From Leptolyngbya sp. BL-A-14 (GTDB taxonomy: Bacteria > Cyanobacteriota > Cyanobacteriia > Leptolyngbyales > Leptolyngbyaceae), in NCBI GenBank assembly GCA_041937185.1, contig CP166621.1, positions 2,068,571 through 2,132,570 on the forward strand: a DNA stretch of 64,000 nt, given 5' to 3'. The notes beneath the pieces were generated by a model. The model was not told the DNA's origin. It ran no database searches and saw nothing but the letters and a program-made list of their open reading frames with translations. The translations under genes were made by a program, and so were the position numbers. Every line of letters starts with the position of its first letter. The stretch's first letter is position 1. Shown here in pieces: positions 10,534-63,986 of this stretch.

Positions 10534-11496
10534 ATGCAGATCCGTCGTCGTCCACCCAATCCTGCGGTTTCTGTACAGGAATTGCGCTATCAGGTAAAGG
10601 TACCGGATGCAGCCCCTCGCCATATTCTGGAGGAAATCGTCTGGCAAAAAGAGGCTGAAGTCGCTCAATGGCGCGAGCGTGTGCCGTTGCTAGAGCTGCA
10701 AAAGCAGGTGCAAGATCTACCAGCACCACGAAATTTTTTGCAGGCTCTCCGCCAGGGTAAGTCTCGTCCTGCCGTCATTGCCGAAGTCAAGAAGGCATCT
10801 CCTAGTAAAGGGGTGATTCGGGAAGATTTTGACCCCGTCGCGATCGCTCGCTCCTATGAGCAGGGTGGTGCAACCTGCCTTTCAGTACTCACCGACCAAA
10901 CGTTTTTTCAAGGCAGTTTTGAGTATCTTGCCAGCATTCGTCGGGTAACCGAGCTGCCGTTGTTGTGCAAGGAATTCATTATTTACCCATACCAGATGTA
11001 CCTGGCAAGGGTAAACGGTGCGGATGCCGTACTCTTGATTGCAGCCATTTTGTCTGACAAAGATCTTCAGTACTTTCTCAAAATTGCAGCCACCCTGGGC
11101 TTAACCGCGCTGGTCGAGGTGCATACCTTAGCAGAGCTCGATCGCGTACTATCACTAGAAGGCGTTGCTCTAGTTGGCATCAACAACCGTAATCTACAAG
11201 ATTTTTCAGTTGATTTACAAACCACCTGTCGCCTGCTGGACGATCGCCAGGAGCAACTGCGATCGCGAAACATTCTGATTGTCAGTGAATCTGGTCTTTA
11301 TACGACTGAGGATTTGCAATTGGTAATGAATGCAGGTGCCAGTGCAGTACTGGTGGGCGAAGCACTTATGCGGCAACCTGATCCTGCCGTTGCGCTAAGC
11401 ACCCTCATTGGGGGTAGTGCAGACGTTGGGGCTACTGCAAACTCCCCAGCATCAAATCCACCGTTACCTGCCCCGCCCTCAGGAGAGGCTGGCTAA
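10534..11496 (+). CDS. trpC: Indole-3-glycerol phosphate synthase
   Basis: [38 protein letters not shown]-terminus typical of cyanobacterial TrpC. Confidence 0.9.
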
Positions 11497-18202: not shown

Positions 18203-18598
18203 GGAACACTGAAGGATGAGCGGTTGGTTTAAGCGTGTTGTCTTAAAGCAGTAGATGATTGATGCAGCGACAGTCTTGATGACTGCCAATCATGAGTGAC
18301 GAAGCTTGGCTGTGACAAACGTCAGTAAGCGTGACTGTAATTTAGACGGCGCGATCGTTCTGCTCTCATAAATCCCTAAGAGAGTACAAAAATCAACAAA
18401 TGTAAAAATCAACCTGAGAGTATGAGGCCTCTCGCTTCGCCTGGGACTTTATGGGCGGTAGTGCGGTTTCAAGTGGGTGTCTCACCACGTTGGCACGCCT
18501 GTAGAAGACCCTCTCAGGATGGTTTAAAGGTTAGAAATTATGTCATCCTGGGATAGGCCGCTATTGTGTGTGATGTTCTCAATTCCCAAGGCAGACCC

Positions 18599-32707: not shown

Positions 32708-33871
32708 TTACAGTAAGCCCACCGCATGCAACGGACCGCGTCCCATCAAGATTTCGAGCAGCACAGCGAGAATGCCTAGCATCGCAAGCCGGCCATTCCA
32801 CACTTCGGCTGAAATTGTCATCCCCCATTCCCATCGTTCGGGAGGATACATTTTCACCTGCTTCTCTGGATGCATGACCTGAGCCAGTTTCAGATGAGGA
32901 GCATCGATCGCTTCCACAACCAGATCTGCCAGATCCTCGATAAAGCCAGGATGGGTATTGAGAGCCGGAACGCGGTGGAAGTTTTCAATGCCAGCTTCCT
33001 CTGCCAGTTCCCGATACTCCATATCGATTTCTTGCAGCGTTTCAATATGCTCTGAAACAAAGCTAATTGGCACAACGGCCAAATCTTTTACGCCTTGATC
33101 AGCCAGTTCCTGAAGTGCGTCATCGGTATAGGGTTGGAGCCACTCGACAGGACCGACACGACTTTGATACGCCAGCACATGCGGGTTAGGACGATTCAGC
33201 GTTCGCATGATGAGCGCTACACAAGCTTCAATTTCGCGCTGATAGGGATCGCCCGCCTCTTCGACATAGCTTACAGGCACGCCATGCGCGCTGAAGAAGA
33301 CGTGCACCTGATCGGGATTGGGAAACTGATCCAATTCATGTGCAATTAAATCTGCCATCGCCCGAAGGTAGCCGGGGCGATCGTACCAGGAGGGAATCGC
33401 CGTGTAGTCAATCTTCGCCAGACTGGGATCTTCTTGCCAAATTTGCTCTAACAGACGAAAGCTAGAGCCACTGGTACTGATGGAAAAGTGGGGATAGAGC
33501 GGCAAAATCACCAGCTGGTCAACCTGATCCCGCTTGATACGAGCGATCGCTTCTTCTGTGTAGGGGTGCCAGTAGCGCATACCCACATAAACGCTTGCAT
33601 CATGCCCTTTTTGCCGTAGTGCTGCCTGGAGTGCTTGAGCCTGTTCTTCTGTGATGCGTCGCAGTGGTGAACCGCCACCAATTTGCCGATAGTTTTCCTG
33701 CGATTTTTTTGCCCGTGTGGTTGAAATTAACCAGGCAAGTGGACGTTGCAGCCAGGGAAATGGCAGGCGAATAATCTCCGGATCGGAGAATAAGTTGAAC
33801 AGAAAGGGACGAACATCCTCCAAATGGTCTGGTCCGCCCAGATTTAGCAGCAATACCCCAAATCGACCCAT
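32708..33871 (-). CDS. hemH: Ferrochelatase with C-terminal CAB (chlorophyll a/b-binding-like) helix
   Basis: Ferrochelatase core. C-terminal [18 protein letters not shown] motif typical of cyanobacterial HemH. Confidence 0.9.
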
Positions 33872-41589: not shown

Positions 41590-42024
41590 CTAATTGGTAC
41601 AGTAACAGCAGTGAGCAAAGTAGTTTCGCAAGTCCCTACTCGAACAGAGGCTAACGCCCAGTTGTAATAGCTTTGTAATGGTTTCTACACTCTTCGGTAC
41701 AAACCGCCGGATAAACGACTTCAACTGCCACCACAGGTGTTCAATCGGGTTGAACTCAGGTGAGTACGGCGATAAGTAAACAACCCTGGCTCCGACCGCT
41801 TCGATCATCTGCTCTATCCCTTCAACTTTATGGGCTTTGAGGTTATCCATCACCACCACTGCCCCCGGCCACAACTTCGGGACGAGACGTGCGGACACAA
41901 ACTGTTTGAAGTCTTCTCCTGTCATCGATTTGCCCAACGTTTGCATCGCCAGGATGGCGGTTTGACTAATCGCCCCAACGACGGTGATCCGGCGACCGCG
42001 GTAGAAGGGTTTGAGGTCATACAC
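41590..42024 (-). CDS. IS630 transposase, C-terminal DDE_3 part (frameshifted relative to the HTH part)
   Basis: VVVMDNLKAHK...YLSPYSPEFNPIEHLW DDE_3 motifs. Confidence 0.75.
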   Translation of the reverse strand: MYDLKPFYRGRRITVVGAISQTAILAMQTLGKSMTGEDFKQFVSARLVPKLWPGAVVVMDNLKAHKVEGIEQMIEAVGARVVYLSPYSPEFNPIEHLWWQLKSFIRRFVPKSVETITKLLQLGVSLCSSRDLRNYFAHCCYCTN

Positions 42025-42152
42025 TCGTTGTCCCTTACAACTTCTTCCCGGGTCTGCTTAACCCTTGCAGCACTCCCATCTCGTCCAGGAAGACTAAATT
42101 TTCTGGCAGAACCGTACTGATCGTCCGCCAGTAGGCAACTCGTTGTGCTTGC

Positions 42153-42533
42153 TTATCCGCTGCTGCGGCTTGAGCACTGCGACAGGTTTTTTTTAACCGT
42201 TAACTGCTGTTTTTGCAAGAATCGGCACATCGTACTTTCACTCACACTCACCCCGGTTTTGTCTTGCCAATACTCGCAATACTCTGCCAATGTATAGTCC
42301 TGGTGTGTCTCAACCATCTCTGCGATGTTCTGTTCATAGCCTGCCAGTTGGCTTGCCTTACCGCCTGTTGCTGGAGCAGGCTTCAGTGTTCCTGTGGCTT
42401 GCTTGCGCTTGAGCAACGACTGAACCGTATTTTTGCTGACCTGAAATCTCTCTGCTACCTTCCGAATCGAAGTATTGCCTGTCTCATAGGTACTGATAAT
42501 TTTTTCGCGTAGGTCGAGGGAGTAGGGCTTCAT
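42153..42533 (-). CDS. IS630 transposase, N-terminal HTH part
   Basis: MKPYSLDLREKII...IRKVAERFQVSKNTV helix-turn-helix. Separate frame from the DDE part. Confidence 0.7.
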   Translation of the reverse strand: MKPYSLDLREKIISTYETGNTSIRKVAERFQVSKNTVQSLLKRKQATGTLKPAPATGGKASQLAGYEQNIAEMVETHQDYTLAEYCEYWQDKTGVSVSESTMCRFLQKQQLTVKKNLSQCSSRSSG

Positions 42534-46871: not shown

Positions 46872-47786
46872 CTAGTCAAAGGGGATCGTATCCACCCAGT
46901 CCTGATACTGTGGATCGCGCTTTTCAGTGATGGCAATCAGCTTGGCGCGTAGCTGGTCAGTGATGGGACGATCGACAGGCAGCATGTAGTTTTCGACCCG
47001 TTTGATAGGTGCCACTTTCGCCGCTGTCCCCGTCAGAAATGCTTCATCAGCGATGTAAAGCTCTGATTTATCCACCGGACGCTCGATCGTGGGAATGCCC
47101 AAATCCTTTGCCAACGTCAGCACGCTATCGCGCGTAATGCCCTCCAAAATATCTTGCTCAAACCCAGGTGTAATCAACGTCCCGTTACGAACAATGAAAA
47201 TATTCATCCCAGACGCTTCACTGACTTTGCCCTGAGCATTGAGCATGATGGCTTCATCAAACCCTGATTCGGCCGCTTCTGTTTTAGCAAGGGCAGAGGC
47301 AATATAGGCGGCCGTAATCTTGCCCCGCAGCGGCATGCTGTTATCGGCCTGACGCTGCCACGAACTAATGCGACAGCTTACCCCAGCGGGGGACAAATAA
47401 TCATCCATTGCCAAGCCGTAGACCAGGAAGCTCTTTTCTACCTGGTGAAGCCGAGGTGCAACGCCTAACCCAGACGTGTAAACCAGAGGGCGAATGTAAA
47501 ACGGAACGGTTGGGCGATTTTTTTGAATAAATTCGACAATGACTTGCTTGATGGTAGTGCTGGGCAAGTCGTAATGGAGAAAGCGAGCGCTTTGGCTCAA
47601 GCGATGACAATGGCGCTCTAGCCGAAATAACAGCACTTGATTCGCATTCTGCGGATCGGGAATGCCTCGTAACCCCCCGATCGCACCCGTACCATAGTGC
47701 AACGCATGGGTCGCGATCGAAATTTTGGCCTCTGTAAACGGTAGAAATTGGTCTTGAAGGTAGGCGATGGGTAAGAAATTGTCCAT
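46872..47786 (-). CDS. ilvE: Branched-chain amino acid aminotransferase
   Basis: Class IV aminotransferase motifs. 304 aa. Confidence 0.9.
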   Translation of the reverse strand: MDNFLPIAYLQDQFLPFTEAKISIATHALHYGTGAIGGLRGIPDPQNANQVLLFRLERHCHRLSQSARFLHYDLPSTTIKQVIVEFIQKNRPTVPFYIRPLVYTSGLGVAPRLHQVEKSFLVYGLAMDDYLSPAGVSCRISSWQRQADNSMPLRGKITAAYIASALAKTEAAESGFDEAIMLNAQGKVSEASGMNIFIVRNGTLITPGFEQDILEGITRDSVLTLAKDLGIPTIERPVDKSELYIADEAFLTGTAAKVAPIKRVENYMLPVDRPITDQLRAKLIAITEKRDPQYQDWVDTIPFD

Positions 47787-47833
47787 GAGTCTGTGTGAGT
47801 GATGAGATGAAAAGAAGCCAATAATGGCAAACG

Positions 47834-48298
47834 CTAGTGCTGTTGATAGTACTGTACGATTTGCGCGATGAATGACTGCCAGCGATCGTTTGGTTTCCAG
47901 ATGGCGTACAGATCTTGTGCAGCAAGCGTCTCATCCATGCCTTGACACAACCGACGGTAAAGATACAGAAACGCCGAAACCCGCATGTTTTTTGCACAGT
48001 GGACAAAAATCGGCTGTTCTGCGTGCGTTTGCATGACGCTGAAAAACTGTTGCACATCTGCCAGCGTTGGCTCTTCCCACACCACGGGAATAGAAATATA
48101 GGTCATCCCCTGCGCTTCGACCAGTGCCTGCTCGTTCGGTAATGCATTTGCCGAAGTCGGCAACGCCAGATTGACCACAACACGATAACCTGCGGCTTTG
48201 ATGGCAGCAATCTGCGCCTCGGTTGGTTGCCCTGCCGTAGCGATCGTGTCTGCAAGCTGGCGGTAATGAGGAATAGCGGCGATCGACGTTTCAACCAT
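47834..48298 (-). CDS. DUF442 / phosphatase-like (beta-lactamase hydrolase-like) family protein
   Basis: VHCAKNMRVS Cys-loop resembling a PTP-like fold. 154 aa. Confidence 0.5.
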   Translation of the reverse strand: MVETSIAAIPHYRQLADTIATAGQPTEAQIAAIKAAGYRVVVNLALPTSANALPNEQALVEAQGMTYISIPVVWEEPTLADVQQFFSVMQTHAEQPIFVHCAKNMRVSAFLYLYRRLCQGMDETLAAQDLYAIWKPNDRWQSFIAQIVQYYQQH

Positions 48299-48564
48299 AC
48301 TGAACTGTGGGCAATGTGTTGCTATCTCCAGTACAACACAATCTTTCTGTGTAGAAACAGCAGATTTCGCAGTATTCCCTGACCGAGTAAATCAAAGCGC
48401 TTTATTATCTCTTCTTTCCAATTTCGCCTCTGCCTTGTATGACATGAGACTTATTTTCTCCATCTTCAGGTTTAAACTTTGCTGATACGTCAATCCATCA
48501 TTTCCTTGGACACATCATTTCCTTGGACACATCATTCCCTTGAACACATCATCCCCTCAAACAA

Positions 48565-48831
48565 ATGAGACAAGAACTCACAGAACAACGACAGGAGCAA
48601 TATCTGAAATTGATTGAAGCGTTGTTCGCTTGCCCTAATGGACAGGAACCAGTCATTCTCGATGCCCAACCCGATCTAATTGATGCCGGGTTGGTGCAAT
48701 CACTGGTCAAAGTTGGCACGATGATGGCTCACCAAGAAAATCAAGAAGGTGCCCAGTTTCTCTTCCATGTTGCCCGTGAATTAGCCATCCAGCTAAACCT
48801 ATATGCTCAACCAACGGCGAAGGAGTCATGA
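48565..48831 (+). CDS. Hypothetical protein (translationally coupled to the next ORF by an ATGA overlap)
   Basis: ORF. Stop/start overlap at 48828-48831. Confidence 0.35.
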   Translation: MRQELTEQRQEQYLKLIEALFACPNGQEPVILDAQPDLIDAGLVQSLVKVGTMMAHQENQEGAQFLFHVARELAIQLNLYAQPTAKES

Positions 48832-49151
48832 TGACCACTCTTAACCGATCGACCGATGACGTTGGGCAACTCGCGATCGCCTTTCTCATGGAGGATCTGG
48901 AGATTCCAACCGATGATCAAGAATGGTTTTCGGTGTTGAATGTGCGGCCTGTAGGAGAAACCTGGGATGTCGTGGAGATTGGCGTCGAAGGGCTCCCTGA
49001 TAAATGGGTGCTGCAAGTTTACGACACGGGGGAGTGCGACCCCAGCTATACCTTTAGCTCTCCTGTAAGTGCGTCAGAAGCAGATACTGGCTTAGAAGAT
49101 CTGCCAGAGCCGATCGCCAAGATCTTAGCCGCTGAACGCACAAACACCTAA
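48828..49151 (+). CDS. Hypothetical acidic protein
   Basis: ORF. Asp/Glu-rich. Coupled to the upstream ORF. Confidence 0.35.
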   Translation: MMTTLNRSTDDVGQLAIAFLMEDLEIPTDDQEWFSVLNVRPVGETWDVVEIGVEGLPDKWVLQVYDTGECDPSYTFSSPVSASEADTGLEDLPEPIAKILAAERTNT

Positions 49152-49234
49152 TCGCATCTTGCCCTGGAAATACGGGTGTGGGGTGTAGGGGTAGGGTATG
49201 GCGAATGCAAAGGGAAGTGGCTGTAAGGGAAGCA

Positions 49235-50071
49235 TTACTGCATTGGTGGCATCACCACTTTGCGAGCTAACCCCAATCGTTTTAACAGCCAGATTGCCCA
49301 CCAGGTCGGGTCGTATTCCCACCAGCGCCATCCGGCTTTGGCAACATTAGGGTAGGCATGGTGATTGTTGTGCCAGCCTTCCCCATACGTGAGGATCGCT
49401 GCCCACCAGAGATTGCGCGAGTTATCGTCTGTTTCAAAAGTACGATAGCCCCACATATGAGTAATGGAATTGATAAACCAGGTGCTATGCCAGAGCAAAA
49501 CAGCTCGAACAACCATACCCCAGATGATAAATTTCCAGCCTCCGAGGACATATAACAATAGACCCAGGGGGATTTGCAGCAGCAAAAAGTTTCGATTCAA
49601 CCAACGATAAAAGGGATCGCGTGCCAGATCAGGGGCAAACCGCTCGTACTCCTCATAGTTAAAGAATTCTGAATGGGGATAAAAAATCCACAGCATGTGG
49701 CTCCACCAAAAGCCACGACGGGCAGAGTAGGGATCTTTATCCACATCTTCGGTGTATGCATGGTGCAACCGATGCCCTGAAACCCAGAAGATGGGGCCGC
49801 CCTGTAACGCTGTGGCTCCGATCAGGGCAATAATATACTCTAACCACTTGGGCACCTGAAAGCTGCGATGGCTCAAGAGACGGTGATAGCCTAAACAGAT
49901 CCCAATGCTGCCAAACAGCCAGTGTAGAAATAAGGTCATCCCCAACGCGGACCAGGAGAAAAACCAGGGTGCTGTCAGCGCCAGCAGGTGAACGCTGCCG
50001 AAGAAAATGACAGCGACCCAATCTAAAGCAGGTTCATGCTTGGGGTTTATTGACACGTTATTACCAGTCAT
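49235..50071 (-). CDS. Acyl-lipid delta-9 fatty acid desaturase (DesC/DesF-like)
   Basis: Histidine boxes HRLHH, HNNHH. Start moved to the ATG at 50071 (GAGGA SD). The upstream part of the ORF translates a repeat. Confidence 0.85.
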   Translation of the reverse strand: MTGNNVSINPKHEPALDWVAVIFFGSVHLLALTAPWFFSWSALGMTLFLHWLFGSIGICLGYHRLLSHRSFQVPKWLEYIIALIGATALQGGPIFWVSGHRLHHAYTEDVDKDPYSARRGFWWSHMLWIFYPHSEFFNYEEYERFAPDLARDPFYRWLNRNFLLLQIPLGLLLYVLGGWKFIIWGMVVRAVLLWHSTWFINSITHMWGYRTFETDDNSRNLWWAAILTYGEGWHNNHHAYPNVAKAGWRWWEYDPTWWAIWLLKRLGLARKVVMPPMQ

Positions 50072-50100
50072 CAAAAAAATCCTCAACCACAGTAAGTAGA

Positions 50101-50240
50101 TAGAAAGGGGGAAGGAGTGAGAGAGCGGGTGGGTGAGAGAGTGGGTGGGTGAGAGAGTGAGAGCACACATCATTCCATCACCTCGTTATCCCCTCACCCC
50201 ATCACCGCATCATCTCATCATCCCGTTATCTCAACACCTC
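50101..50240. repeat. Purine-tract then pyrimidine-tract repeat block (GTGAGAGA / GGTGATGG units)
   Basis: gggggaaggagtgagagagcgggtgggtgagagagtgggtgggtgagagagtgagag ... catcacctcgttatcccctcaccccatcaccgcatcatctcatcatccc. Confidence 0.75.
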
Positions 50241-52275
50241 ACGACCAGGCTGTTACTGCTGGTTCTAGAAGGTTGGCAATCGCAGGATCTTGGTACGTCC
50301 CATTGCGATGCGTGATTCTAACGGCATTCGCCAATTGCTCAATCGGTGCCCCTTTTAAGTAGATGGCATCGGCTCCTGCCGCGATCGCCTCTGAGACGAT
50401 GGATAGTTGTCCAGGGCTAACCAGCACCAAAATTTTGGATGGGATGACGTAAGAATTTGCTTGAGCCTTACGCGCCATCCGAATGAACTTAGCCAGATCC
50501 ATATCGGGTAAAGTCCCATCAACCACTGCAACATCAACATCAATGGATTCCAACAGCACAATCCCTGTTTCAGCATTGGTGGCTTCGCTGGCAACTTCAA
50601 TGCCATCTTGGGCGCGCAAATCTATCCGCAGCTTAATACGTGTCTGTTCATCAGCCTCAATGAGAGCAACCTGAATCACATCATGAGGTTTCTGTACTTT
50701 GATGTAGCCACTGGCTTCTGATGGTTCATTCGGCCCCCCGCAAGCTGAAATGGTGCCAAGGGAATCAACATCAGCTGAAACCTGCTTCAGTTGAGCCATT
50801 TGCTCGGCAGACAGAATTCTGGATTCATCAAAGCCGAACTCAATTTCGGTATGTAGCCCTTTCTGTTTGACGCGGCTCAAATTGTAGAAGCGCTTGTTGA
50901 GTGTCGTTTTGACAAAAGCCCAGAGGCAGCCCAGGAGGTAACGCCGCTTAAACGGATCGGGCTCAAACCAATATTCTAAAAACTTCCAGGAATAGAAACG
51001 AGCATAGTTCCGCAACACGCCTTTAAGTACACCCTCCCGCGTCATATTGTCGGGTTTGATGATGGGCGTCACAAAGTTGTAATGGGAATAATCGCGGATT
51101 TCAACTTTATCCTGTAAATCCTGAAATAGTTCTGAAAACGGCCAGGGGGTGTACATGTTCCAGTTGGTCATGTCCGCTTTCCAGTCGCGCGCCATCCGGT
51201 AGGTTTCCTCGATGGTTTCTGGCGTTTCACTGGGTAAGCCCATAATGAACTGGACTTCTGCCAGGATGCCATTGTCACGCAGAAGCTCTACAGCGCGCTT
51301 GTTGTCAGCGATCGTCGTTTCTTTGCGGAACAGATTGAGATTTAACTGCGCGGCCGCTTCTGTGCCGAGAGAAACATGCACCAATCCCGCTTTGCGATAC
51401 AGAGGCAGCTCCTTTTCATCCCGCAAAATATCGGTTACGCGGGTGTTAATGCCCCAATGTACCCCCAGGTTGCGCTCAACAAGCTCATGGCACAGTGCCA
51501 CAAAGCGCGATTTGTTGATCGTGGGTTCTTCATCGGCCAGGATGAAAAAGCCGACCTTATGCTCCTTCACCAACTGCTCGATTTCATCCACAAAGTTTTG
51601 GGGCGATCGAGAGCGATATTTGCGCCAGAACTTCCATTGCGAACAAAAGCGGCAGCGGAAGGGACACCCACGCGAGTAATTGGGCACAGCCACCCTCGTA
51701 TTGAGGGGCGTGTACTTGTAGGTGTTCCAATCCAGCAGCGACCAATCTGGAGTGAGCGTGTTCAGATCTTTGATCGGTGGGTGGGCTGGAGTCGCGACGA
51801 TTTTGCCATCTTCCAGGAAGGCCAATCCCAGGATTTGGCGACGATCGCGTGCGTCGGTGCCAGCTGCGATCGCCCGCAGCAAATTGACCGTGATCTCCTC
51901 ACCTTCACCCCGAATGATGTAATCCACCCAGGGAGCTTCACTTAACACCTCTCGATACATATAAGTGGGATGCACACCACCCATGATGGTTTTGGCGTTT
52001 GGGCAAACGTCTTTGACCAGCTTCAATGTTTTCTGAGACTGATAAATCATGGGCGTAATTGCCGTCGCCAACACAACATCCGGTTGATGCTCGCGAATCA
52101 TGTCTGCCAGTGCAGCATCGGCAATATAGTTAGTCATCGCGTCAATGAACCGAACGTCATTGAAGCCTGCGGTCTTTAAAGCACCGCCTACATAAGGCAC
52201 CCAACTAGGCGGCCAGTTACCAGCGATTTCTGCACCACCGGAGTGATAGTTGGGTTGAATCATTAAAATACGCAT
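50239..52275 (-). CDS. B12-binding radical-SAM enzyme (BchE-like anaerobic Mg-protoporphyrin IX monomethyl ester cyclase family) with fused C-terminal receiver(REC)-like domain
   Basis: N-terminal B12-binding region. CPFRCRFC radical-SAM cysteine triad. C-terminal ~130 aa carries REC motifs (VVDGTLPDMD, LVLVS, YLKGAP). Confidence 0.75.
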   Translation of the reverse strand: MRILMIQPNYHSGGAEIAGNWPPSWVPYVGGALKTAGFNDVRFIDAMTNYIADAALADMIREHQPDVVLATAITPMIYQSQKTLKLVKDVCPNAKTIMGGVHPTYMYREVLSEAPWVDYIIRGEGEEITVNLLRAIAAGTDARDRRQILGLAFLEDGKIVATPAHPPIKDLNTLTPDWSLLDWNTYKYTPLNTRVAVPNYSRGCPFRCRFCSQWKFWRKYRSRSPQNFVDEIEQLVKEHKVGFFILADEEPTINKSRFVALCHELVERNLGVHWGINTRVTDILRDEKELPLYRKAGLVHVSLGTEAAAQLNLNLFRKETTIADNKRAVELLRDNGILAEVQFIMGLPSETPETIEETYRMARDWKADMTNWNMYTPWPFSELFQDLQDKVEIRDYSHYNFVTPIIKPDNMTREGVLKGVLRNYARFYSWKFLEYWFEPDPFKRRYLLGCLWAFVKTTLNKRFYNLSRVKQKGLHTEIEFGFDESRILSAEQMAQLKQVSADVDSLGTISACGGPNEPSEASGYIKVQKPHDVIQVALIEADEQTRIKLRIDLRAQDGIEVASEATNAETGIVLLESIDVDVAVVDGTLPDMDLAKFIRMARKAQANSYVIPSKILVLVSPGQLSIVSEAIAAGADAIYLKGAPIEQLANAVRITHRNGTYQDPAIANLLEPAVTAWS

Positions 52276-52309
52276 GGCTTACTTTCCTTTCTCAACCAAT
52301 GAATATTCA

Positions 52310-52440
52310 TTTGGAGATGGATGATGGGAAGGGGTGATGATGGAATGATGAGGTGATGAGAGGGGGAGATGATGGGATAGCGGGATCTCCTACGCTCTTA
52401 CGCTTCCTCACCCACTTACCCAGCCTTCCACCCTGCCACC
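52310..52440. repeat. Purine-tract then pyrimidine-tract repeat block (GATGATGG units)
   Basis: gagatggatgatgggaaggggtgatgatggaatgatgaggtgatgagagggggagatgatggg ... cgcttcctcacccacttacccagccttccaccctgccacccacgc. Confidence 0.75.
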
Positions 52441-52445
52441 CACGC

Positions 52446-53843
52446 TTATACCGCTCTTGAGAAGTTGGATGTTGTGTTTTGCTTGAAGTAAGCATCAAAC
52501 GCCGAAGCAATATTGCGAATCAGCAACCGCCCGGCAGGCGTCACTTCAATGTGATTCGGGGAATGCCTGATTAACCCATCCACTTCTAAGCGACGCAGTT
52601 GGAATTTTTCAGAGGCAAAATACGTTTCAAAATCCAGATCAAAGCCAAGGTGGTATTTTTCTTCCACATCCTGAGGAGAAAGCTGAAATTGACACATCAA
52701 TTCCATAATGACCGTGCGTCGAATGATGTCATCCTGGCTTAAGGTAACGCCTCGCTCGATCGGCAATTCATTGGCATCGATCGCTCGATAAAAATCTTTC
52801 AGGCGCTTATGATTTTGCACATAAACATCGTTCAGCATGCTAATCGAGGTCACACCAAAGCCGATCAAATCGGATTCTGGTTTCGTCGTATAACCCTGAA
52901 AGTTCCGGTGTAGCAGTCCTTCACGCTGGGCAATCGACAATTCATCCTCAGGTTTGGCAAAGTGATCCATGCCAATGTACTGATAGCCATGCTGGGTTAA
53001 CTCATCGATCGCCATTTGCAGAATCTTGAGTTTCTCAGCGGCTGAAGGTAAGGCCTCCTGGGGAATTCGCTTTTGGACTGGTTTGAGCCACGGCACATAG
53101 GCAAAGTTGAAGACGGCAATGCGATCGGGATCGAGTTGAAGCGTTTTGCGAATGGTGTCTCGGAACGTTTCTAGCGTTTGATAGGGAAGTCCATAAATCA
53201 AATCCACATTCACGCTTTCAAAGCCTGCATCCCGGCTCCACCGCATGACATCAAACAGCATGGATTCTGGCTGTACTCGATTGACCGCTTCCTGCACCTT
53301 CAAGTTAAAGTCCTGGATGCCAAAGCTAATCCGGTTAAAGCCCAGATTCTTTAACGAGGCAAGATAGTGTTGATCTAATGCTTTGGGATTGACCTCAATC
53401 GAAATTTCAGCGTTCGGATCAAAGCGAAAATGCTCGTGAATCGCTGTCCATAGCGTTTCAACCTGCTTCAGCGAAAGATAGTTCGGCGTGCCTCCGCCCC
53501 AGTGCAGTTGGTGAACGGTGCGATCGCCATCAATTAATTGAGCCATCTGCTGAATATGCCTGATCAGATAACTCAGGTAATGCTCAGCCAGTTCCTTACG
53601 CTGCGTAATGACCGTATTGCAACCGCAGAAATAACAGGCGCTGTCACAAAACGGAATATGGCAGTAGAGCGACAGAGGTGTTTTTTTATAATTACTGACC
53701 GCGATCGCCGCTCTAAAATCAATGTCTTCAAACTCTGGTTTTAACTCGGTCGCTGGGGGGTAGCTGGTGTAGCGCGGTACGGGCTGGTCGTATTGTTGCA
53801 GGAGTTGAGCGTCAAACTGCACAGTGGGCAACAGATGTTGCAT
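52446..53843 (-). CDS. hemN: Oxygen-independent coproporphyrinogen III oxidase
   Basis: Radical-SAM CxxxCxxC (CDSACYFCGC). HemN length and C-terminal domain. Confidence 0.9.
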   Translation of the reverse strand: MQHLLPTVQFDAQLLQQYDQPVPRYTSYPPATELKPEFEDIDFRAAIAVSNYKKTPLSLYCHIPFCDSACYFCGCNTVITQRKELAEHYLSYLIRHIQQMAQLIDGDRTVHQLHWGGGTPNYLSLKQVETLWTAIHEHFRFDPNAEISIEVNPKALDQHYLASLKNLGFNRISFGIQDFNLKVQEAVNRVQPESMLFDVMRWSRDAGFESVNVDLIYGLPYQTLETFRDTIRKTLQLDPDRIAVFNFAYVPWLKPVQKRIPQEALPSAAEKLKILQMAIDELTQHGYQYIGMDHFAKPEDELSIAQREGLLHRNFQGYTTKPESDLIGFGVTSISMLNDVYVQNHKRLKDFYRAIDANELPIERGVTLSQDDIIRRTVIMELMCQFQLSPQDVEEKYHLGFDLDFETYFASEKFQLRRLEVDGLIRHSPNHIEVTPAGRLLIRNIASAFDAYFKQNTTSNFSRAV

Positions 53844-54290
53844 GGTGTTCTCGGTGGTAAGGGTGGGAGTGAAGCGTGAGAAGTCAAGGAGGATGAGCTG
53901 GGAGGTGGTAGTCGCGCTGCAGTGGCATTGGGGATTAACCGCATGAAGCCGTTGAACCGCACTAGGGCGTGCTTTAAAACCTTCGGGTCGTTGCCTTGAC
54001 TCTTGGTGATCCCCCTAAATCCCCCTTAAAAAAGGGGACTTTGAATGGTTCAGTTCCCTCCTTTTTAAGGAGGGTTGGGGAGGATCAAGGGTTTTAAAAT
54101 ACAGCCTAGGGGGCAGGAGTCACGCAAGAGTGTTCCAGCCAAATGAAGTGGACTGTCCTTCTGAAAGCCATTTGGTTTGAGTTTCTGGAGGAAAGACTGT
54201 GGCCAGTGGCATCGTGCGATCGTCGCTGTAGCGTAAAGAGCTACTGGTCAGAACGGTGCCAGATCTGAGCGCGTCCACGCTCCCATTGTT

Positions 54291-55046
54291 CTAAATGCTG
54301 TACTCAATGGCAGGTGCTTTGGCAACGCCGTGCGGAGGACGCTCAGTCGCGCCAGGAATTTCCTGACGGGTGAGTAGATCAAACACGTGGTCACCAATAA
54401 GCGCTTTCACGTCTGGTTCCAGATCATGCATCACATCCCGGTTGAGACGGAAGGCATCGTTTGCTTCATCCACAATGTGCTGAATGTCTAGGTCATTCAA
54501 GGGCAATGCGTTCAAGGCATCCCGGTATTTTTCCTTGAAGGCACGTTTAGCTTCCACCGTTGGTAGTTGCTCAAATTCGTGCAGTGCCGTGCCTTGATCG
54601 GGCGGCAACTTTAAAGCAGACCGGATAATGTTTTTTAATGCTTGCCCACCCGAGAGATCGCCCATATAACGGGTGTAGGCATGGGCAATCAACAGGATGG
54701 GTTCGGTGTTGGCAACGGTGTGGATGCGATCGACATAGACCTGCCCTGCCGGTAAAGCCACAATTTCCTCCCGCCAGCGATCGCCATAATAGAAGGCCAG
54801 ATCGCGTTCGAGATTAGCAGCGCGGTAAATTTCGGGAAACACAATGGGAGCAATGGCCGGATGCTCACTGTGCCGCTGTAGTTCTGTTTCTAACGCGCTG
54901 TAGACCAGGTATAAATTTGCAAGCAGTTTGCGGAAGGGTTCCCGTTCTACAATGCCTTTGAGAAAACATTTCATGAAAGCGGTGTTTTCAGCAGCGGTAT
55001 GGGAATGCTTGGTGCCTTCACGAAGGCGGGTTGCTAAAGTACTCAT
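54291..55046 (-). CDS. Heme oxygenase (ho2-type, in the low-oxygen cluster)
   Basis: MSTLATRLREGTKHSHTAAEN proximal-His helix typical of HO. Confidence 0.85.
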   Translation of the reverse strand: MSTLATRLREGTKHSHTAAENTAFMKCFLKGIVEREPFRKLLANLYLVYSALETELQRHSEHPAIAPIVFPEIYRAANLERDLAFYYGDRWREEIVALPAGQVYVDRIHTVANTEPILLIAHAYTRYMGDLSGGQALKNIIRSALKLPPDQGTALHEFEQLPTVEAKRAFKEKYRDALNALPLNDLDIQHIVDEANDAFRLNRDVMHDLEPDVKALIGDHVFDLLTRQEIPGATERPPHGVAKAPAIEYSI

Positions 55047-55056
55047 GGCAATCTTC

Positions 55057-56130
55057 CTATTTTATGGCGGTTCTAGCTTGTTCGGCGTTAATCGAGGGCA
55101 GGAAATAAAGGCGCAACAACTGCCACCCGATCACAGCGAGCCAGGGCAGTTTTTGCAAAAATTGGATGGGTTTGGGACGCTTCGCCTGAGAAATTTCGTC
55201 TAATTTTTGATTGGCGATCGCGCAGCGCTCTAACCGCGAGAAAAATTCAGGATGCTCGGTATCCATGACGCTGGGGAACGCTCGCACAGAGGTTGCATTG
55301 GTCTGGCGAATGACTTCTTCGTTATAGGCGCGTGGATCAATGCCCAACGATTGGTAGAAGGTAGAGCGTTCCAGTACGGTCAGCGTATGCGTTGCAAAGA
55401 CCGTGAGCAAAAAGAAACGCGCCCAGAGTCTCGACTGCCAGGTGTTCCACAGCTTGGGTTGCGATCGCAGCAGCACCTTGAAGAAATCGCCATGCCGATT
55501 TTCGTCCTGACACCAGTTCTCAAAATAGCGGAACAGTGGGTAATAACGGTTTTCTGGATGCTGCTCAAGATGGCGGAAGACGAGAATGTAGCGCCAGTAG
55601 CCAATCTTCTCAGACAGGTAAACGGTGTAAATAACCCATTCTGGCGGGAAAAAGGTATAGGTCCGATGTTTGGTTAAGTAGCCCAGGTCGAGGGATAACC
55701 CAAAGTCGGCCATCGCCTTATTCAAAAAGCCTGCATGACGGGCTTCATCTCGCGCCAGCAAGCTAAAGGCTTCGGATAACACGGGATTGCGGTCTTTGAG
55801 CTTGCGGGAGAGTTCTTTGAAGAGCAGAAACCCCGAAAATTCTGATGTGCAAGACCGTTCTAGAAAGTCAATGAACGATCGCCGAGTTTCCCCATCAATG
55901 TGCTCCCAGCATTGCTCAAACTCTTGATTACGGACAAAATGATGGCGGTTATAGTCAGCTCGCAATTCTGCTAAAACGGCTTCTATTTCATCCGCTTGCC
56001 CCGATAAATCCATCTGAGCAACGGCATCGAAATCAGTGGTGTAAAAGCGAGGGGTTAAGAGCGTTTCTTGAACGGGTGATTTTATACCTGGACGCATCCC
56101 GGACTCAGTCGCGGGCGTTGAACTGACCAT
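55057..56130 (-). CDS. acsF: Mg-protoporphyrin IX monomethyl ester oxidative cyclase (AcsF/ChlA, chlAII-type copy)
   Basis: Di-iron carboxylate motifs (EFSGFLLFKE...ARDEARHAGF; DENRHGDF). 357 aa. Confidence 0.9.
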   Translation of the reverse strand: MVSSTPATESGMRPGIKSPVQETLLTPRFYTTDFDAVAQMDLSGQADEIEAVLAELRADYNRHHFVRNQEFEQCWEHIDGETRRSFIDFLERSCTSEFSGFLLFKELSRKLKDRNPVLSEAFSLLARDEARHAGFLNKAMADFGLSLDLGYLTKHRTYTFFPPEWVIYTVYLSEKIGYWRYILVFRHLEQHPENRYYPLFRYFENWCQDENRHGDFFKVLLRSQPKLWNTWQSRLWARFFLLTVFATHTLTVLERSTFYQSLGIDPRAYNEEVIRQTNATSVRAFPSVMDTEHPEFFSRLERCAIANQKLDEISQAKRPKPIQFLQKLPWLAVIGWQLLRLYFLPSINAEQARTAIK

Positions 56131-56376
56131 AGGATTGATGCTTCTAATCGTGACTGAGCAACATCTTTCCGCGAATCGTCAAACCTCCGCAAGACAGTTA
56201 CCATCGCTGCGCTATAGTTACCGCAAGTAAAGCATTAGTACGCTGTCTGGCTTTGAGGCAGTTCTAAAGAAATAATATTTTTTGTTAGCACTGGCTAGAA
56301 GGGCAGGCAAAACGCCTAGAATGCTGGTAGCAGCGCAGTTTTCCAAGTCGCTTTCTCCTGCTAGAAGATCTGACCG

Positions 56377-56742
56377 ATGCTAGAAACGAATCCGTGTATT
56401 GAGGCTCAATGTCCGATCCAGTTCGTATTAGATGTTCTGGGCAACAAGTGGTCCATTCTCGTTTTGCGGGAGCTTTTTGGGGGCGATCGACGAACGCATG
56501 AACTGCTCACCGCACTACCAGGCATTAGCACCAAAACGTTGACTCAGCGACTTCGATCGTTAGAGGCACAAGGGCTGGTTGAACGTCATATCTATGCAGA
56601 AATTCCGCCTCGCGTGGAGTACGCCCTTACGCCAAAGGGTCGTCAGATCAAGCCTGTGATGGCGGCGCTGCACGAAGTCGGTTCGCAGTGGCTAGAGCAA
56701 GATCCGTGTGTTTGCCCCTTAAATCTCGTGGAACAACCGTAG
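56377..56742 (+). CDS. HxlR-family winged-helix transcriptional regulator (divergent from acsF)
   Basis: CPIQFVLDVLGNKWSILVL signature of HxlR/DUF24. Confidence 0.8.
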   Translation: MLETNPCIEAQCPIQFVLDVLGNKWSILVLRELFGGDRRTHELLTALPGISTKTLTQRLRSLEAQGLVERHIYAEIPPRVEYALTPKGRQIKPVMAALHEVGSQWLEQDPCVCPLNLVEQP

Positions 56743-56993
56743 GCTTTCAGGTTCAGAATGGTGCAAGTTGTTTCTTTTTGATCGCCGCGATCGCCTTACA
56801 ATCATTGAGCAAGCGGTTAGGATCACAGATTAAATAAAATCGAATATTCTGGCTGTACGGGCGAAGCATTCGGCACTTAACGCCGCCTGAGTTGCAAGGT
56901 TTTTGCCCGTAGCTTGCTTCCCGCAGGGTACGCTTCGCCCCTACCAAAGCTTATTGACTTCTCATTCCTTAATGCCTCAAACACTCTGCTTCC

Positions 56994-57773
56994 ATGTGCC
57001 AACTGCTCGGAATGAACTGCAATACACCAACCGACATCTGTTTTTCCTTTGAGGGGTTTTCAGCACGAGGAGGAAAAACAGACGAACACCGGGACGGGTG
57101 GGGCATTGCGTTTTTTGAAGGGGTTGGGTGCCGTATTTTTCTCGATGAGAAATCGTCGTTCACCTCCCCTGTGGCGGATTTAGTCCGGCGTTATCCCATT
57201 AAATCAACCCATGTCATCGCGCATATCCGTAAAGCGACCTTCGGTGCAGTGGCGCTAGAAAACTGCCATCCCTTTCAGCGAGAACTTTGGGGCCGCTACT
57301 GGATCTTTGCTCACAACGGCGATTTACCGGACTTCTACCCAGAGAATGCTGGCTTTTATACACCTGTAGGTCAAACCGATAGCGAGCGAGCGTTTTGCTT
57401 ACTGTTGAATACCCTGCGGCAAACCTTCCCTAATGGCAAACCACCGCTGCAAGACCTTTACCCGGTGCTGCAAGCAGTAACACGCACCATTGCCGCCAAA
57501 GGCAGCTTCAATTACTTATTATCGGATGGGGAGCATTTTTTTGCCCACTGCTCTACCAAGCTTTGCTACATTGTGCGCCAGGCTCCCTTTGCAGCGGCTC
57601 ACCTCATCGATGCGGATCTCACGGTAGATTTTCAGGAATTGACGACTCCGCGCGATCGCGTCGCTCTCATTACCACTGCACCCTTAACAGATAATGAAGT
57701 CTGGACAGCGATTGAACCCGGAGAGCTACTGGTTTTTCATGATGGATTGCCCCTAAAACCTCCGAGGTTTTGA
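56994..57773 (+). CDS. Class II (Ntn) glutamine amidotransferase, YafJ-type
   Basis: N-terminal MCQLLGMNCNTPTD with the catalytic Cys2 after Met. Confidence 0.8.
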   Translation: MCQLLGMNCNTPTDICFSFEGFSARGGKTDEHRDGWGIAFFEGVGCRIFLDEKSSFTSPVADLVRRYPIKSTHVIAHIRKATFGAVALENCHPFQRELWGRYWIFAHNGDLPDFYPENAGFYTPVGQTDSERAFCLLLNTLRQTFPNGKPPLQDLYPVLQAVTRTIAAKGSFNYLLSDGEHFFAHCSTKLCYIVRQAPFAAAHLIDADLTVDFQELTTPRDRVALITTAPLTDNEVWTAIEPGELLVFHDGLPLKPPRF

Positions 57774-57853
57774 ATGCCCCGGAGGTTTGAACGTTTTCAC
57801 TCTCGATGCGTGACAAAATAAATGCGCCTCACTCAATGGAAACTTCTAGAAAC

Positions 57854-58069
57854 CTACCTTAAAAGCGCTTTCACCAATTTAGGGTGGAGTTGCTCAGGGG
57901 TAAAGGCCGGTTCATTCGGCGGGTAGAGTTCTTCTTCAGCAAAGGCAAACCCATACGCACTGCTCAAGGCCACTAATTCTTTAGCCCGTTCACAGGCTTT
58001 TAGCTTGTCTTGTAATTCCGCGTCTGTTTTAGCCTTCTGGGCAAAAGAGATGATTTGACTGATAGACAT
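57854..58069 (-). CDS. Nif11-domain small protein
   Basis: QIISFAQKAKTDAELQDKLKA...ELVALSSAYGF resembles the Nif11 N-terminal leader-type domain. Confidence 0.5.
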   Translation of the reverse strand: MSISQIISFAQKAKTDAELQDKLKACERAKELVALSSAYGFAFAEEELYPPNEPAFTPEQLHPKLVKALLR

Positions 58070-60206: not shown

Positions 60207-61349
60207 CTCAGTACAGGACAAAAAGCTTGAAAAGAGGAGCAGGGTAGGGTTTCATCAGAATTACCACACTCTTGAGAAACCCTATGAGTCAATATAGCGA
60301 ATTAAAGCAAGTCCTCCAAGCGCAATTAAATTGGCATGGTGCGAGGCTTTCCTTTCTGGCGTTGTTCCTGTTAGCGCTGCTGAAAGTCAAAACGGTGAAC
60401 TTGAGCGAACTGTGTTTAGGTTTTGGTGGAAAGGCGTTGCCCGAATCAAGCTACAAACGGTTGCAGCGGTTTTTTCGAGCATTTGACCTCGATTACCCAC
60501 AACTGGCTAACCTCGTGGTGAGTTGGATGCAAATTCCAAGTGGCTGGGTCTTGAGCCTGGATCGCACGACCTGGAAATTTGGCACTCACTGGTACAACAT
60601 TCTGACCTTAGGGATTGTGCATGAAGGGGTTGCCTTCCCCGTGCTGTGGTGGCTGCTGGACAAGCAAGGGCATGTCAATAGTGACGAGCGGATGCGGTTC
60701 ATGGAGACCTTTGCCAAACGGTTCCCCACGGCGGTCATCAACTACTTGTGTGCTGACCGAGAATTCATCGGGCAAGCCTGGGTGCGCTATCTCCTGCTTG
60801 AACCCGCCTTAGCCTTTCGCTTACGGATTCGCGGCACTGACCAGATTGAGCACGATGGCAAAGTGCTGGCGGCACGGGTCGTGTTTGCGCATTTGCAAGT
60901 GGGGCAAGCCCAGCACCTCACAGGCACTTGCCGGGTCTGGGGCTACCCAGTGGCAATCGAAGCGCTGCGCCTTGAGGATGGGGAGCTACTGGTGGTGATT
61001 GCGCCCGTCGGGGCGCAGGCTTTGGTCAAAGATTATGCCTTGCGCTGGGGCATCGAAACGTTGTTTGGCCTCTTCAAAACGCGCGGCTTCTGCTTGGAAT
61101 CCACTCACTTTACCGAGACTGAGCGCTTGAGTAAGTTGTTCGCTTTGTTGACCTTAGCTCTGTGTTGGGCGATGCGAACGGGTTTATGGTTGCAGCAATG
61201 GCAGCCCATTGCGCTTAAAAAACATGGTCGTCGTGCCAAAAGTTTGTTTCACTTCGGCCTCGATTTTTTGCGCCACTTAGTGCTCAATCCATCAGTGGCT
61301 AATAAGTCCGACTTTGTGCAATCCCTACAACTTTTGTCCTGTACTTAGC
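60207..61349 (+). mobile_element. IS4-family insertion sequence (1143 bp) with 9-bp target duplication CTTGATAAT
   Basis: 18/19-bp TIR CTCAGTACAGGACAAAAAG / CTAAGTACAGGACAAAAG. Identical 9-mers at 60198-60206 and 61350-61358 immediately flank the ends. Confidence 0.8.
60272..61348 (+). CDS. IS4-family DDE transposase
   Basis: C-terminal YALRWGIETLFGLFK motif typical of the IS4 group. Confidence 0.8.
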   Translation: MRNPMSQYSELKQVLQAQLNWHGARLSFLALFLLALLKVKTVNLSELCLGFGGKALPESSYKRLQRFFRAFDLDYPQLANLVVSWMQIPSGWVLSLDRTTWKFGTHWYNILTLGIVHEGVAFPVLWWLLDKQGHVNSDERMRFMETFAKRFPTAVINYLCADREFIGQAWVRYLLLEPALAFRLRIRGTDQIEHDGKVLAARVVFAHLQVGQAQHLTGTCRVWGYPVAIEALRLEDGELLVVIAPVGAQALVKDYALRWGIETLFGLFKTRGFCLESTHFTETERLSKLFALLTLALCWAMRTGLWLQQWQPIALKKHGRRAKSLFHFGLDFLRHLVLNPSVANKSDFVQSLQLLSCT

Positions 61350-63389: not shown

Positions 63390-63986
63390 TTATACCAGTG
63401 CTTTGTAGTTTTTGACGCGATCGCCATCGGCAACGCCCAAAATTTTCGCCAGCCACGGGGGAGGAGAGGTCGCGATCGCGTGTTGCAATTCGCTTAAAAT
63501 CTCTCTAGCGGGACCTCCTGCCTCTTTTTTGATGGGATAGATGCCAGCCTGCACCACTTTCCCTGCTGCGGGGCCGCCAATCGCCACAATATAGAGCACT
63601 GGACAATCTCGAATTAAGCTGACTCGAAACGCATTTTTGTCATCAGATAAATCAGCTTCGATCGCCGATCGAATATCAATCAGCCTGATCTCATCCACGG
63701 AGAGTTGATAGATCAGGTAGCGTAAGCAAGAGCCAAAATGTCCGTCCAGCATTTCTCGATTGTTAGAGGCCACCGCAACTCGAATGGAATTGGGCAAATC
63801 TCCATCCTGGTAAGCTTCAAGGGGTGGTAACTGATCGATTTCATCCAGTTCTCCCCACAAAATGCGAACGGCTTTCTTGAAGATGGCAATATCCGCGGCG
63901 TCAGCATCTTCACCATGCTCCTCTCCATCCAACTCGTAGGTATGTCCAAGAGCGGTTTTCAGATTAGTGACAGTGATTTTACTCAA
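63390..63986 (-). CDS. NifX/NafY-family FeMo-cofactor-binding protein
   Basis: C-terminal dinitrogenase FeMo-cofactor-binding fold motifs (VAVASNNREMLDGHFGSC...IVAIGGPAAGKV) after an N-terminal extension, as in NafY. Confidence 0.6.
   Translation of the reverse strand: MSKITVTNLKTALGHTYELDGEEHGEDADAADIAIFKKAVRILWGELDEIDQLPPLEAYQDGDLPNSIRVAVASNNREMLDGHFGSCLRYLIYQLSVDEIRLIDIRSAIEADLSDDKNAFRVSLIRDCPVLYIVAIGGPAAGKVVQAGIYPIKKEAGGPAREILSELQHAIATSPPPWLAKILGVADGDRVKNYKALV

Follow-up and report, generated by a model that had tools for sequence, protein, structure and literature searches.

The stretch analysed here comprises 64,000 nucleotides of the Leptolyngbya sp. BL-A-14 genome (GenBank assembly GCA_041937185.1, contig CP166621.1, positions 2,068,571 to 2,132,570 of the forward strand) and is referred to below as the window, with positions counted from its first letter. 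It carries a gene, here called chlE-REC, whose predicted product joins the anaerobic cyclase of chlorophyll synthesis, known as ChlE or BchE, to a C-terminal receiver (REC) domain of the type found in two-component response regulators. A preliminary description, made from the sequence alone, had drawn attention to this 678-aa open reading frame (ORF), to its N-terminal B12-binding region, its CPFRCRFC radical-SAM (S-adenosylmethionine) triad and BchE-like body, to a CheY-like receiver at its end and to its position within an acsF-ho2-hemN low-oxygen cluster, all of which are borne out by the profile searches, alignments and structure predictions presented here. The gene is a single ORF on the minus strand, with an ATG start at 52275 and its stop codon at 50239-50241. 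Its features, each with the evidence for it, are as follows.

50239-52275, minus strand: chlE-REC gene, encoding a 678-aa ChlE/BchE with C-terminal receiver (ORF list and translation, TIGR02026)
50716-52275, minus strand: canonical BchE/ChlE body, residues 1-520 (TIGR02026 and alignment with other BchE)
51880-52236, minus strand: B12-binding domain, residues 14-132 (PF02310, 84 bits)
51193-51678, minus strand: radical-SAM core, residues 200-361 (PF04055, 94.5 bits)
51643-51666, minus strand: CxxxCxxC [4Fe-4S]/SAM motif CPFRCRFC, residues 204-211 (translation)
50728-50751, minus strand: C-terminal BchE motif ISACGGPN, residues 509-516 (common to BchE of all phyla)
50677-50715, minus strand: variable linker, residues 521-533 (low conservation; low pLDDT, the predicted local distance difference test score, in the full-length model)
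50296-50676, minus strand: NarL/LuxR-type receiver, residues 534-660 (PF00072, AlphaFold2, Foldseek, dN/dS)
50650-50658, minus strand: acidic residues after β1, E540-A541-D542 (alignment and model)
50518-50520, minus strand: candidate phospho-acceptor D586 at the end of β3 (aligned to D54 of T. maritima CheY)
50416-50418, minus strand: S620, at the conserved Thr/Ser position after β4 (model topology)
50353-50355, minus strand: conserved K641 after β5 (aligned to the CheY Lys)
50242-50295, minus strand: post-α5 tail, residues 661-678 (counterpart of the NarL-type linker helix between receiver and helix-turn-helix, HTH)

The enzymatic part of the product can be assigned with confidence. Residues 2-495 match positions 1-496 of the 497 in TIGR02026, the NCBIfam equivalog profile for BchE, with 770 bits against a cut-off of 481, and the second-best NCBIfam family, HpnJ, reaches 133 bits. 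From residue 1 to about 520 the protein is 62-70% identical to the BchE of Heliobacterium, Roseiflexus, Chromatiaceae and Gemmatimonas, non-cyclase paralogs remaining below 40% identity, and the cysteines of the radical-SAM triad (C204, C208 and C211) are invariant among 46 homologues. By these matches the window protein is ChlE, the cyanobacterial ortholog of BchE, with the cyclase activity itself being predicted. A 100% identical database protein (P0001) comes from a Leptolyngbya sp. metagenome-assembled genome (MAG), and a protein of Cyanothece PCC 7425 (P0109) is 81% identical and carries the same receiver.

Where the enzyme ends can be read from alignments. Set against the BchE of Heliobacterium, Roseiflexus, Chromatiaceae and Nostocales, the body runs to the motif '(T)ISACG(A/G)PxD' at about residue 510-520, and because the canonical body ends there, the linker to the receiver measures only some 13 residues (521-533). 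The window protein resembles BchE/ChlE at large in its full-length equivalog match, its B12-binding domain, its CxxxCxxC core, its ISACG(A/G)P motif and the location of its gene downstream of chlAII-ho2-hemN; in contrast to it, the BchE of anoxygenic phototrophs and the ChlE of Nostocales end at about residue 520-600 in tail repeats, often with 'MMKI', and have no receiver, whereas the window protein has the linker and a 127-residue receiver in place of that tail. The preliminary description had allowed that the extension might turn out to be a standard part of BchE; its absence from the proteins of anoxygenic phototrophs and Nostocales means that it is not, and the alignments mark the receiver as a true addition outside canonical BchE. 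A comparison of tail motifs, which took in the loci L039, L043-L047, L052, L055, L057, L060, L066, L076 and L025-L027 together with the window, also showed that the Cys-containing sequence '[IV]SACGAP[NKR]DLPEY' follows the TIGR02026 body in one to three tandem copies in BchE/ChlE of all phyla. Many of these tails finish in a conserved 'MMKI/SMKI/MMHI', and the fused cyanobacterial forms have one copy of the motif and have lost the terminal tail.

For the C-terminal domain, the Pfam family Response_reg (PF00072) matches residues 536-653 over its full length (profile 1-111 of 111) at a borderline score: the whole protein yields 29.4 bits and the domain taken alone 32.9 bits, the gathering cut-off being 30.2. 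Searches of Protein Data Bank (PDB) sequences with phmmer matched the domain to CheY, VraR, Spo0A, NarL and DesR (best E = 7e-7). For residues 526-678, with 44 diverse relatives as input, AlphaFold2 gave a model that reached a pLDDT of 91.7 and a predicted TM score (pTM) of 0.86 and displays the canonical (βα)5 order. When this fold was compared with the PDB via Foldseek, 442 matches were obtained at E<=0.001, with receivers on top at E about 1e-9; the best among them were receivers of the NarL/LuxR family, namely LiaR, DesR, spr1814, VraR, ChrA and RcsB, and DesR (4le0) matched with a TM score of 0.89 and a root-mean-square deviation of 1.8 Å. Sequence matches and predicted fold agree that the C-terminal domain is a real receiver, and the other ground for rejection named in the preliminary description, the lack of a significant Response_reg hit or of a predicted CheY fold, does not apply.

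The motifs quoted in the preliminary description are all present, and three of the positions they contain, 540, 586 and 641, are strongly conserved among the 120 best database homologues of the protein. IEADEQ (residues 539-544) holds the acidic residues after β1. Glu occupies position 540 in 120/120 sequences; at position 541 there are 68 sequences with D, 42 with A and 5 with E, and at position 542 there are 86 with D and 29 with E. The family reads EDD, EDE or EAD here and, given this variation at 541 and 542, always has at least two acidic residues after β1; the window protein, with EAD, has an Ala where the second canonical Asp would be expected. The candidate phospho-acceptor D586 lies in VAVVDGTLPDMD and is Asp in 117 of the 120, and K641, within YLKGAP, is Lys in all 120. 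LVLVS ends in S620, at a position that is mostly T or S and in some relatives A, N or D. Beyond α5, helices continue in the AlphaFold2 model, G659, Y661, D663 and P664 are nearly invariant, and Foldseek alignments to full-length LiaR and DesR reach 141-147 columns, that is, into the linker helix between receiver and HTH. A Pfam scan of the window protein returned no match to GerE, the LuxR-type HTH family, and since its C-terminus lies 18 residues past α5, the protein has a NarL-type receiver and linker with no DNA-binding domain. Pairwise dN/dS values, to be read with dS near saturation in most pairs, lie at 0.06-0.20 in the receiver, as against 0.02-0.04 in the body and 0.11-0.26 in tail and linker (residues 496-533), and by this measure the receiver is under purifying selection.

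How widespread is the fusion? All 120 best database homologues (78-100% identical; 631-719 aa, mostly 675-690) list a precomputed PF00072 match, and these include proteins of Phormidesmis, Pegethrix, Planktothrix, Oscillatoria, Aerosakkonema, Stigonema and Cyanothece PCC 7425, the last bearing the UniRef name 'Response regulator receiver protein'. We further surveyed 80 loci, one genome per species, with hidden Markov models (HMMs) made for the ChlE body and for this receiver type. Twelve of them carry the fusion (L007-L012, L014-L016, L018, L034 and L063), and at two (L017 and L086) the receiver is an adjacent, separate ORF. The HMM scan found no such receiver within 10 kb of Nostocales-type ChlE genes (L019-L031, L033, L036 and L037) or of L032 and L035, nor within 10 kb of 48 BchE loci from Heliobacteria, Chloroflexota, Chlorobiales, Gemmatimonadota, Vulcanimicrobiota, Proteobacteria and others. 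A neighbour-joining tree of the body, calculated without bootstrap, recovers cyanobacterial ChlE as a monophyletic group, with every receiver-bearing form in one nested clade; in a representative library at 50% identity, BchE proper forms two clusters, one fused and one unfused, the remaining entries being fragments or paralogs below 40% identity. Judged by this distribution, the ChlE-REC fusion is the usual architecture in a large clade of cyanobacterial ChlE. The preliminary description had implied that the fusion was new; since more than 120 homologues (78-91% identity) and the 100% identical protein already carry PF00072 in public databases, this is not supported. A separate observation concerns Pseudanabaena sp. 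Salubria-1 (L013), where the gene is fused and has one in-frame stop at 11131-11135, at about body position 378, which could reflect a pseudogene or a sequencing error.

Several variants of this architecture exist. A search with the C-terminal 183 residues returned many proteins of 140-160 aa that are 52-78% identical to the window receiver. Some of these seemingly stand-alone receivers proved to be partial gene calls or contig fragments and were rejected: Aetokthonos P0129, for instance, lies inside an intact 679-aa ORF. In the Aetokthonos hydrillicola assembly concerned (GCA_017591595.2, L002:6420-8459), only the last 152 aa had been called, as a 'response regulator transcription factor', despite the intact ChlE-REC frame, so that the count of stand-alone receivers is inflated by an annotation artefact. 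As true two-gene forms we accepted those that show the enzyme's stop codon and tail motif together with a separate ATG for the receiver, which applies to Leptodesmis (L004 and L005, two independent assemblies), L006, L017, L086 and L001. In these, the enzyme ends in 'MM[KH][IL]-stop' and the receiver gene, starting at an ATG with 'M-x-D-IQV...', begins 6-200 nt further on or past one inserted gene; every one of these split receivers retains the acceptor Asp and the Lys. At L001:6813-9035, from a cyanobacterial MAG, the inserted gene belongs to the NMO (nitronate monooxygenase-like) family and a hemerythrin gene follows the receiver; an NMO gene is also present at L006, after desF.

At the base of the receiver clade, an Acaryochloris MAG (L034, 6528-8834) encodes an intact 769-aa ChlE-REC that continues into a LuxR-type HTH, with a sub-threshold GerE match of 19.6 bits over profile positions 2-52 of 57. 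Its relatives P0320-P0325 have both PF00072 and PF00196, and L089:2-1922 is a ChlE-REC-HTH fusion with a frameshift. Two independent assemblies, L087 (7193-8771) and L088, show a large internal deletion of the body (about HMM positions 262-485) with REC-HTH left intact, which suggests that REC-HTH has a function independent of catalysis. One fused lineage, comprising Adonisia turfae (L014), Lyngbya confervoides (L018) and the MAGs L015 and L016, has replaced the Asp by Ser or Gly and the Lys by Pro, His or Leu; its receiver is likely a pseudo-receiver. One member of this lineage calls for a separate comment: L016 (CALRJF020000006.1, a 201-kb contig of 70% GC) is binned as the acidobacterium 'Candidatus Sulfopaludibacter sp. 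SbA3', its ChlE with the degenerate receiver groups with cyanobacteria, and the neighbours examined are uninformative apart from a DUF3593 gene. The contig may reflect mis-binning, a high-GC cyanobacterium or horizontal transfer.

These variants also bear on where the receiver came from. The 'MMKI' tail of the split forms is common to the unfused BchE of Heliobacteria, Chloroflexi and Nostocales, which suggests that the two-gene state may be the older one. In the same neighbour-joining tree, the split forms are scattered among the fused ones. Given the basal REC-HTH forms (L034, P0320-P0325, L089, L087 and L088), the receiver most probably derives from a complete NarL-type regulator that was encoded beside chlE. 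Whether by fusion or by adjacency, its recurrence with chlE in many genomes would link the two functionally, a line of argument known as Rosetta-stone evidence.

Around chlE-REC, the window holds the following genes.

55057-56130, minus strand: acsF/chlAII, oxygen-dependent cyclase, first gene of the cluster (TIGR02029, 518 bits)
54291-55046, minus strand: heme oxygenase, ho2-like (PF01126, 270 bits)
52446-53843, minus strand: hemN, oxygen-independent coproporphyrinogen III oxidase (TIGR00538, 718 bits)
49235-50173, minus strand: fatty-acid desaturase, desF-like (DesA-family match; 65 nt downstream of chlE)
56377-56742, plus strand: HxlR-family transcription regulator (PF01638, 112 bits; divergent from acsF)
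13718-15274 and 15362-18289: two adjacent histidine-kinase genes, encoding a hybrid with N-terminal receiver (518 aa) and a 975-aa protein

The order acsF-ho2-hemN-chlE-desF recurs in related genomes, and the desaturase occupies the same position at L002, L004-L007, L011 and L012. According to a Fujita-lab review, chlAII-ho2-hemN(-desF) constitutes a low-oxygen cluster in Synechocystis 6803 and Leptolyngbya boryana that is under the control of the MarR-type activator ChlR, and the bchE gene of Cyanothece 7425 lies just downstream of chlAII-ho2-hemN (PMC4500134). By homology with Synechocystis and Leptolyngbya boryana, the window cluster would be switched on transcriptionally at low oxygen. The HxlR-family protein is a candidate regulator of the cluster and may be the local counterpart of ChlR. 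An HxlR gene is likewise divergent from acsF, at the head of the cluster, at L006:2035-2475, L007:5963-6325 and L086:5797-6201, and L087 has an ArsR/MarR-type HTH gene there.

A search of positions 47000-58000 against Rfam revealed no cobalamin riboswitch or other RNA element at E<=0.1, and scans for promoter and terminator motifs gave nothing above shuffled expectation. Remnants of mobile elements flank the region at 41590-42533 and 60272-61348, consisting of IS630-type transposase pieces (DDE_3, HTH_Tnp_IS630) and an IS4-family transposase. Unlinked to the cluster, the window further contains a ferrochelatase, itself a tetrapyrrole enzyme, and a NifX/FeMo-cofactor-binding-like ORF at 32708-33871 and 63390-63986.

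The gene had been described as lying next to a histidine-kinase-rich region, which does not hold: the only kinases of the 64-kb window are the two just listed, 32-36 kb away. The window receiver is therefore not half of a classical adjacent kinase-regulator pair. With kinases being neither nearby nor conserved neighbours, it is best called an orphan. At a single related locus, that of Kamptonema sp. (L008:4099-8587), two genes for histidine kinases lie immediately upstream of chlE-REC, on the other strand, and since no other related locus has adjacent kinases, these two are candidate cognate kinases.

Comparison with known systems helps to delimit what is special about this protein. The NarL/LuxR (FixJ) regulators, such as DesR, LiaR, VraR, NarL and RcsB, provide the best sequence and fold matches of its receiver and share with it the 'EATNxxxG' signature at β2/α2, the 'LKD/LKG...P' motif at β5 lacking the usual Lys-Pro, the linker helix after α5 as well as the acceptor Asp, acidic pocket and Lys, and a LuxR-type HTH is found in the basal relatives (L034, L089 and P0320-P0325). 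Unlike them, the window receiver sits C-terminal to a large enzyme and has neither an HTH nor an adjacent partner kinase gene; in the absence of an HTH, the protein is not a transcription factor of the NarL family. Control of enzymes by receivers is an established principle, known from the CheB methylesterase, the diguanylate cyclases PleD and WspR, the phosphodiesterase RpfG and RssB-type adaptors. These have in common with the window protein the covalent joining of a CheY-like domain to a catalytic one, a layout that lets phosphorylation adjust how active the enzyme is. They differ from it in that theirs are signalling enzymes with the receiver at the N-terminus, whereas here it is C-terminal and attached to a core biosynthetic radical-SAM/B12 enzyme. 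ChlR control, as described for Synechocystis 6803 and Leptolyngbya boryana in the same review, concerns the same gene cluster and a presumed low-oxygen role, yet it is transcriptional and relies on a MarR-type protein, whereas the window has an HxlR-type regulator by acsF and its receiver would act at the protein level (PMC4500134).

As for earlier work, the architecture is automatically annotated in databases and the family includes a strain with a studied chlE, so the gene itself is not new. ChlE of Cyanothece PCC 7425 and 7822 has reportedly been described by Yamanashi, Minamizaki and Fujita in 2015. A literature search, the reach of which did not extend to that primary ChlE paper, came upon no account of BchE/ChlE, or of any radical-SAM enzyme, carrying a receiver. 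The Fujita-lab review that discusses cyanobacterial bchE makes no mention of a receiver either (PMC4500134). Nor was any functional study of the fusion found.

What might the receiver do? An artefact, in which chlE and a response-regulator gene were joined by assembly or sequencing error or in which the receiver resemblance is due to chance, could draw on the borderline Pfam score in the whole protein (29.4 vs 30.2) and on the two-gene versions of other genomes. However, many isolates, including Phormidesmis, Planktothrix, Cyanothece 7425 and Aetokthonos, and over 120 independent database clusters contain the uninterrupted ORF, and the AlphaFold2 model is of high confidence and matches known folds at E about 1e-9, by which this explanation is refuted; we give it practically no credence. 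The reading we favour, and to which we assign about an even chance, is that the cyclase is subject to phosphorylation-dependent control via its receiver, exerted by an unlinked kinase or a small phosphodonor. It is preferred because D586, K641 and E540 are conserved, the domain is under purifying selection, fusion or adjacency ties it to chlE and the gene belongs to a low-oxygen cluster. Phosphorylation of NarL-type receivers typically drives dimerisation. In ChlE-REC, D586 would receive a phosphoryl group from a small phosphodonor or from a histidine kinase whose gene lies elsewhere. The surface of the receiver would be altered as a result, with dimerisation, as in DesR, VraR and LiaR, the probable outcome. 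This change could in turn modulate the activity, the oligomeric state or assembly, or the stability of the oxygen-labile cyclase, an effect that we infer, including its direction. The cyclase would then be active only if a second signal, for example redox state, oxygen or light, concurs, and the receiver would constitute a fast post-translational layer on top of the transcriptional induction of the cluster.

A number of points weigh against such control. No kinase gene is found within 32 kb of chlE in the window, and none is conserved as a chlE neighbour across the related loci examined. The Thr/Ser switch position 620 varies (T, S, N, D or A); in the window protein and in about a third of its relatives, Ala replaces the second of the canonical Asp residues after β1; and the receiver follows the enzyme, whereas in classical regulators it stands at the N-terminus. 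Moreover, the full-length AlphaFold2 model, which is based on a shallow alignment (>=78% identity), reaches a pLDDT of 64 and a pTM of 0.41 and does not resolve the interface between receiver and body. Yamanashi et al. (2015) reportedly found that chlE of Cyanothece 7425 can complement a mutant of Rhodobacter capsulatus in bchE; if this holds, the protein works without its native kinase. Finally, the lineage of L014, L015, L016 and L018 keeps the domain after losing both Asp and Lys, so at least there it would have a role independent of phosphorylation. This lineage speaks for an alternative in which the receiver is a phosphorylation-independent module for dimerisation or docking, for example of an electron donor or of neighbouring pathway enzymes, and in which Asp and Lys are kept solely for structure or metal binding. 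Variability at position 620, the lack of a cognate kinase nearby and the reported activity in a heterologous host would fit this as well. It has to be set against the retention of Asp in 117/120 and of Lys in 120/120 homologues, across genera with saturated synonymous divergence, and of both residues in every split receiver, which is hard to explain without phosphorylation chemistry; we consider the pseudo-receiver reading unlikely. Information could also flow the other way, the receiver being the remnant of a NarL-type regulator that signals outward while the enzyme body, as a trigger enzyme, reports oxygen damage, cofactor status or substrate load, with DNA as the output in REC-HTH forms and, in forms lacking the HTH, a partner protein or a phosphate sink within the pathway of the low-oxygen regulon. 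The basal ChlE-REC-HTH(LuxR) sub-family (L034, P0320-P0325 and the frameshifted L089), the intact REC-HTH of L087 and L088 next to an internally deleted body, the C-terminal placement of the receiver, reminiscent of CheV or hybrid-kinase layouts, the NarL-type linker helix retained in the window protein and the persistence of split single-domain receivers beside chlE all speak for this idea. Yet a DNA-binding domain is missing from the window protein and from most of the clade, which would need some partner for output, the GerE match of L034 is below the Pfam cut-off, the three-domain form is seen in few and mostly fragmentary examples, and a mechanism for the control of a receiver by a radical-SAM body is not known; we regard a trigger enzyme as rather unlikely. 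Its bifunctional version, in which the oxygen-labile Fe-S/B12 body of ChlE-REC(-HTH) would serve as the sensor for the fused NarL-type regulator and would pass on the integrity or turnover state of the enzyme via the receiver, to gene expression in the REC-HTH forms or to a phosphorelay partner in forms without HTH such as the window protein, strikes us as improbable.

As oxygen levels change, cyanobacterial chlorophyll synthesis must switch between oxygen-dependent and oxygen-independent enzymes, and to our knowledge only transcriptional control by ChlR has so far been described for this switch. The significance of ChlE-REC in this context has its limits: the architecture is visible in public annotation, fusions of receivers to enzymes follow a familiar principle and the role of the receiver is one that we infer. 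On the practical side, ChlE/BchE has resisted in vitro reconstitution, and ChlE constructs with or without the receiver, or with a phosphomimetic one, may behave differently. Should the trigger-enzyme reading be true, an enzyme of the chlorophyll pathway would be a direct sensor of oxygen or tetrapyrroles in cyanobacteria. More generally, the presence of a conserved and apparently phosphorylatable receiver on the anaerobic cyclase hints at a link, acting after translation, by which two-component signalling would reach a radical-SAM enzyme of the tetrapyrrole pathway, and the unfused, adjacent two-gene, ChlE-REC, ChlE-REC-HTH and degenerate-receiver forms constitute a natural series in which that link may be tested.

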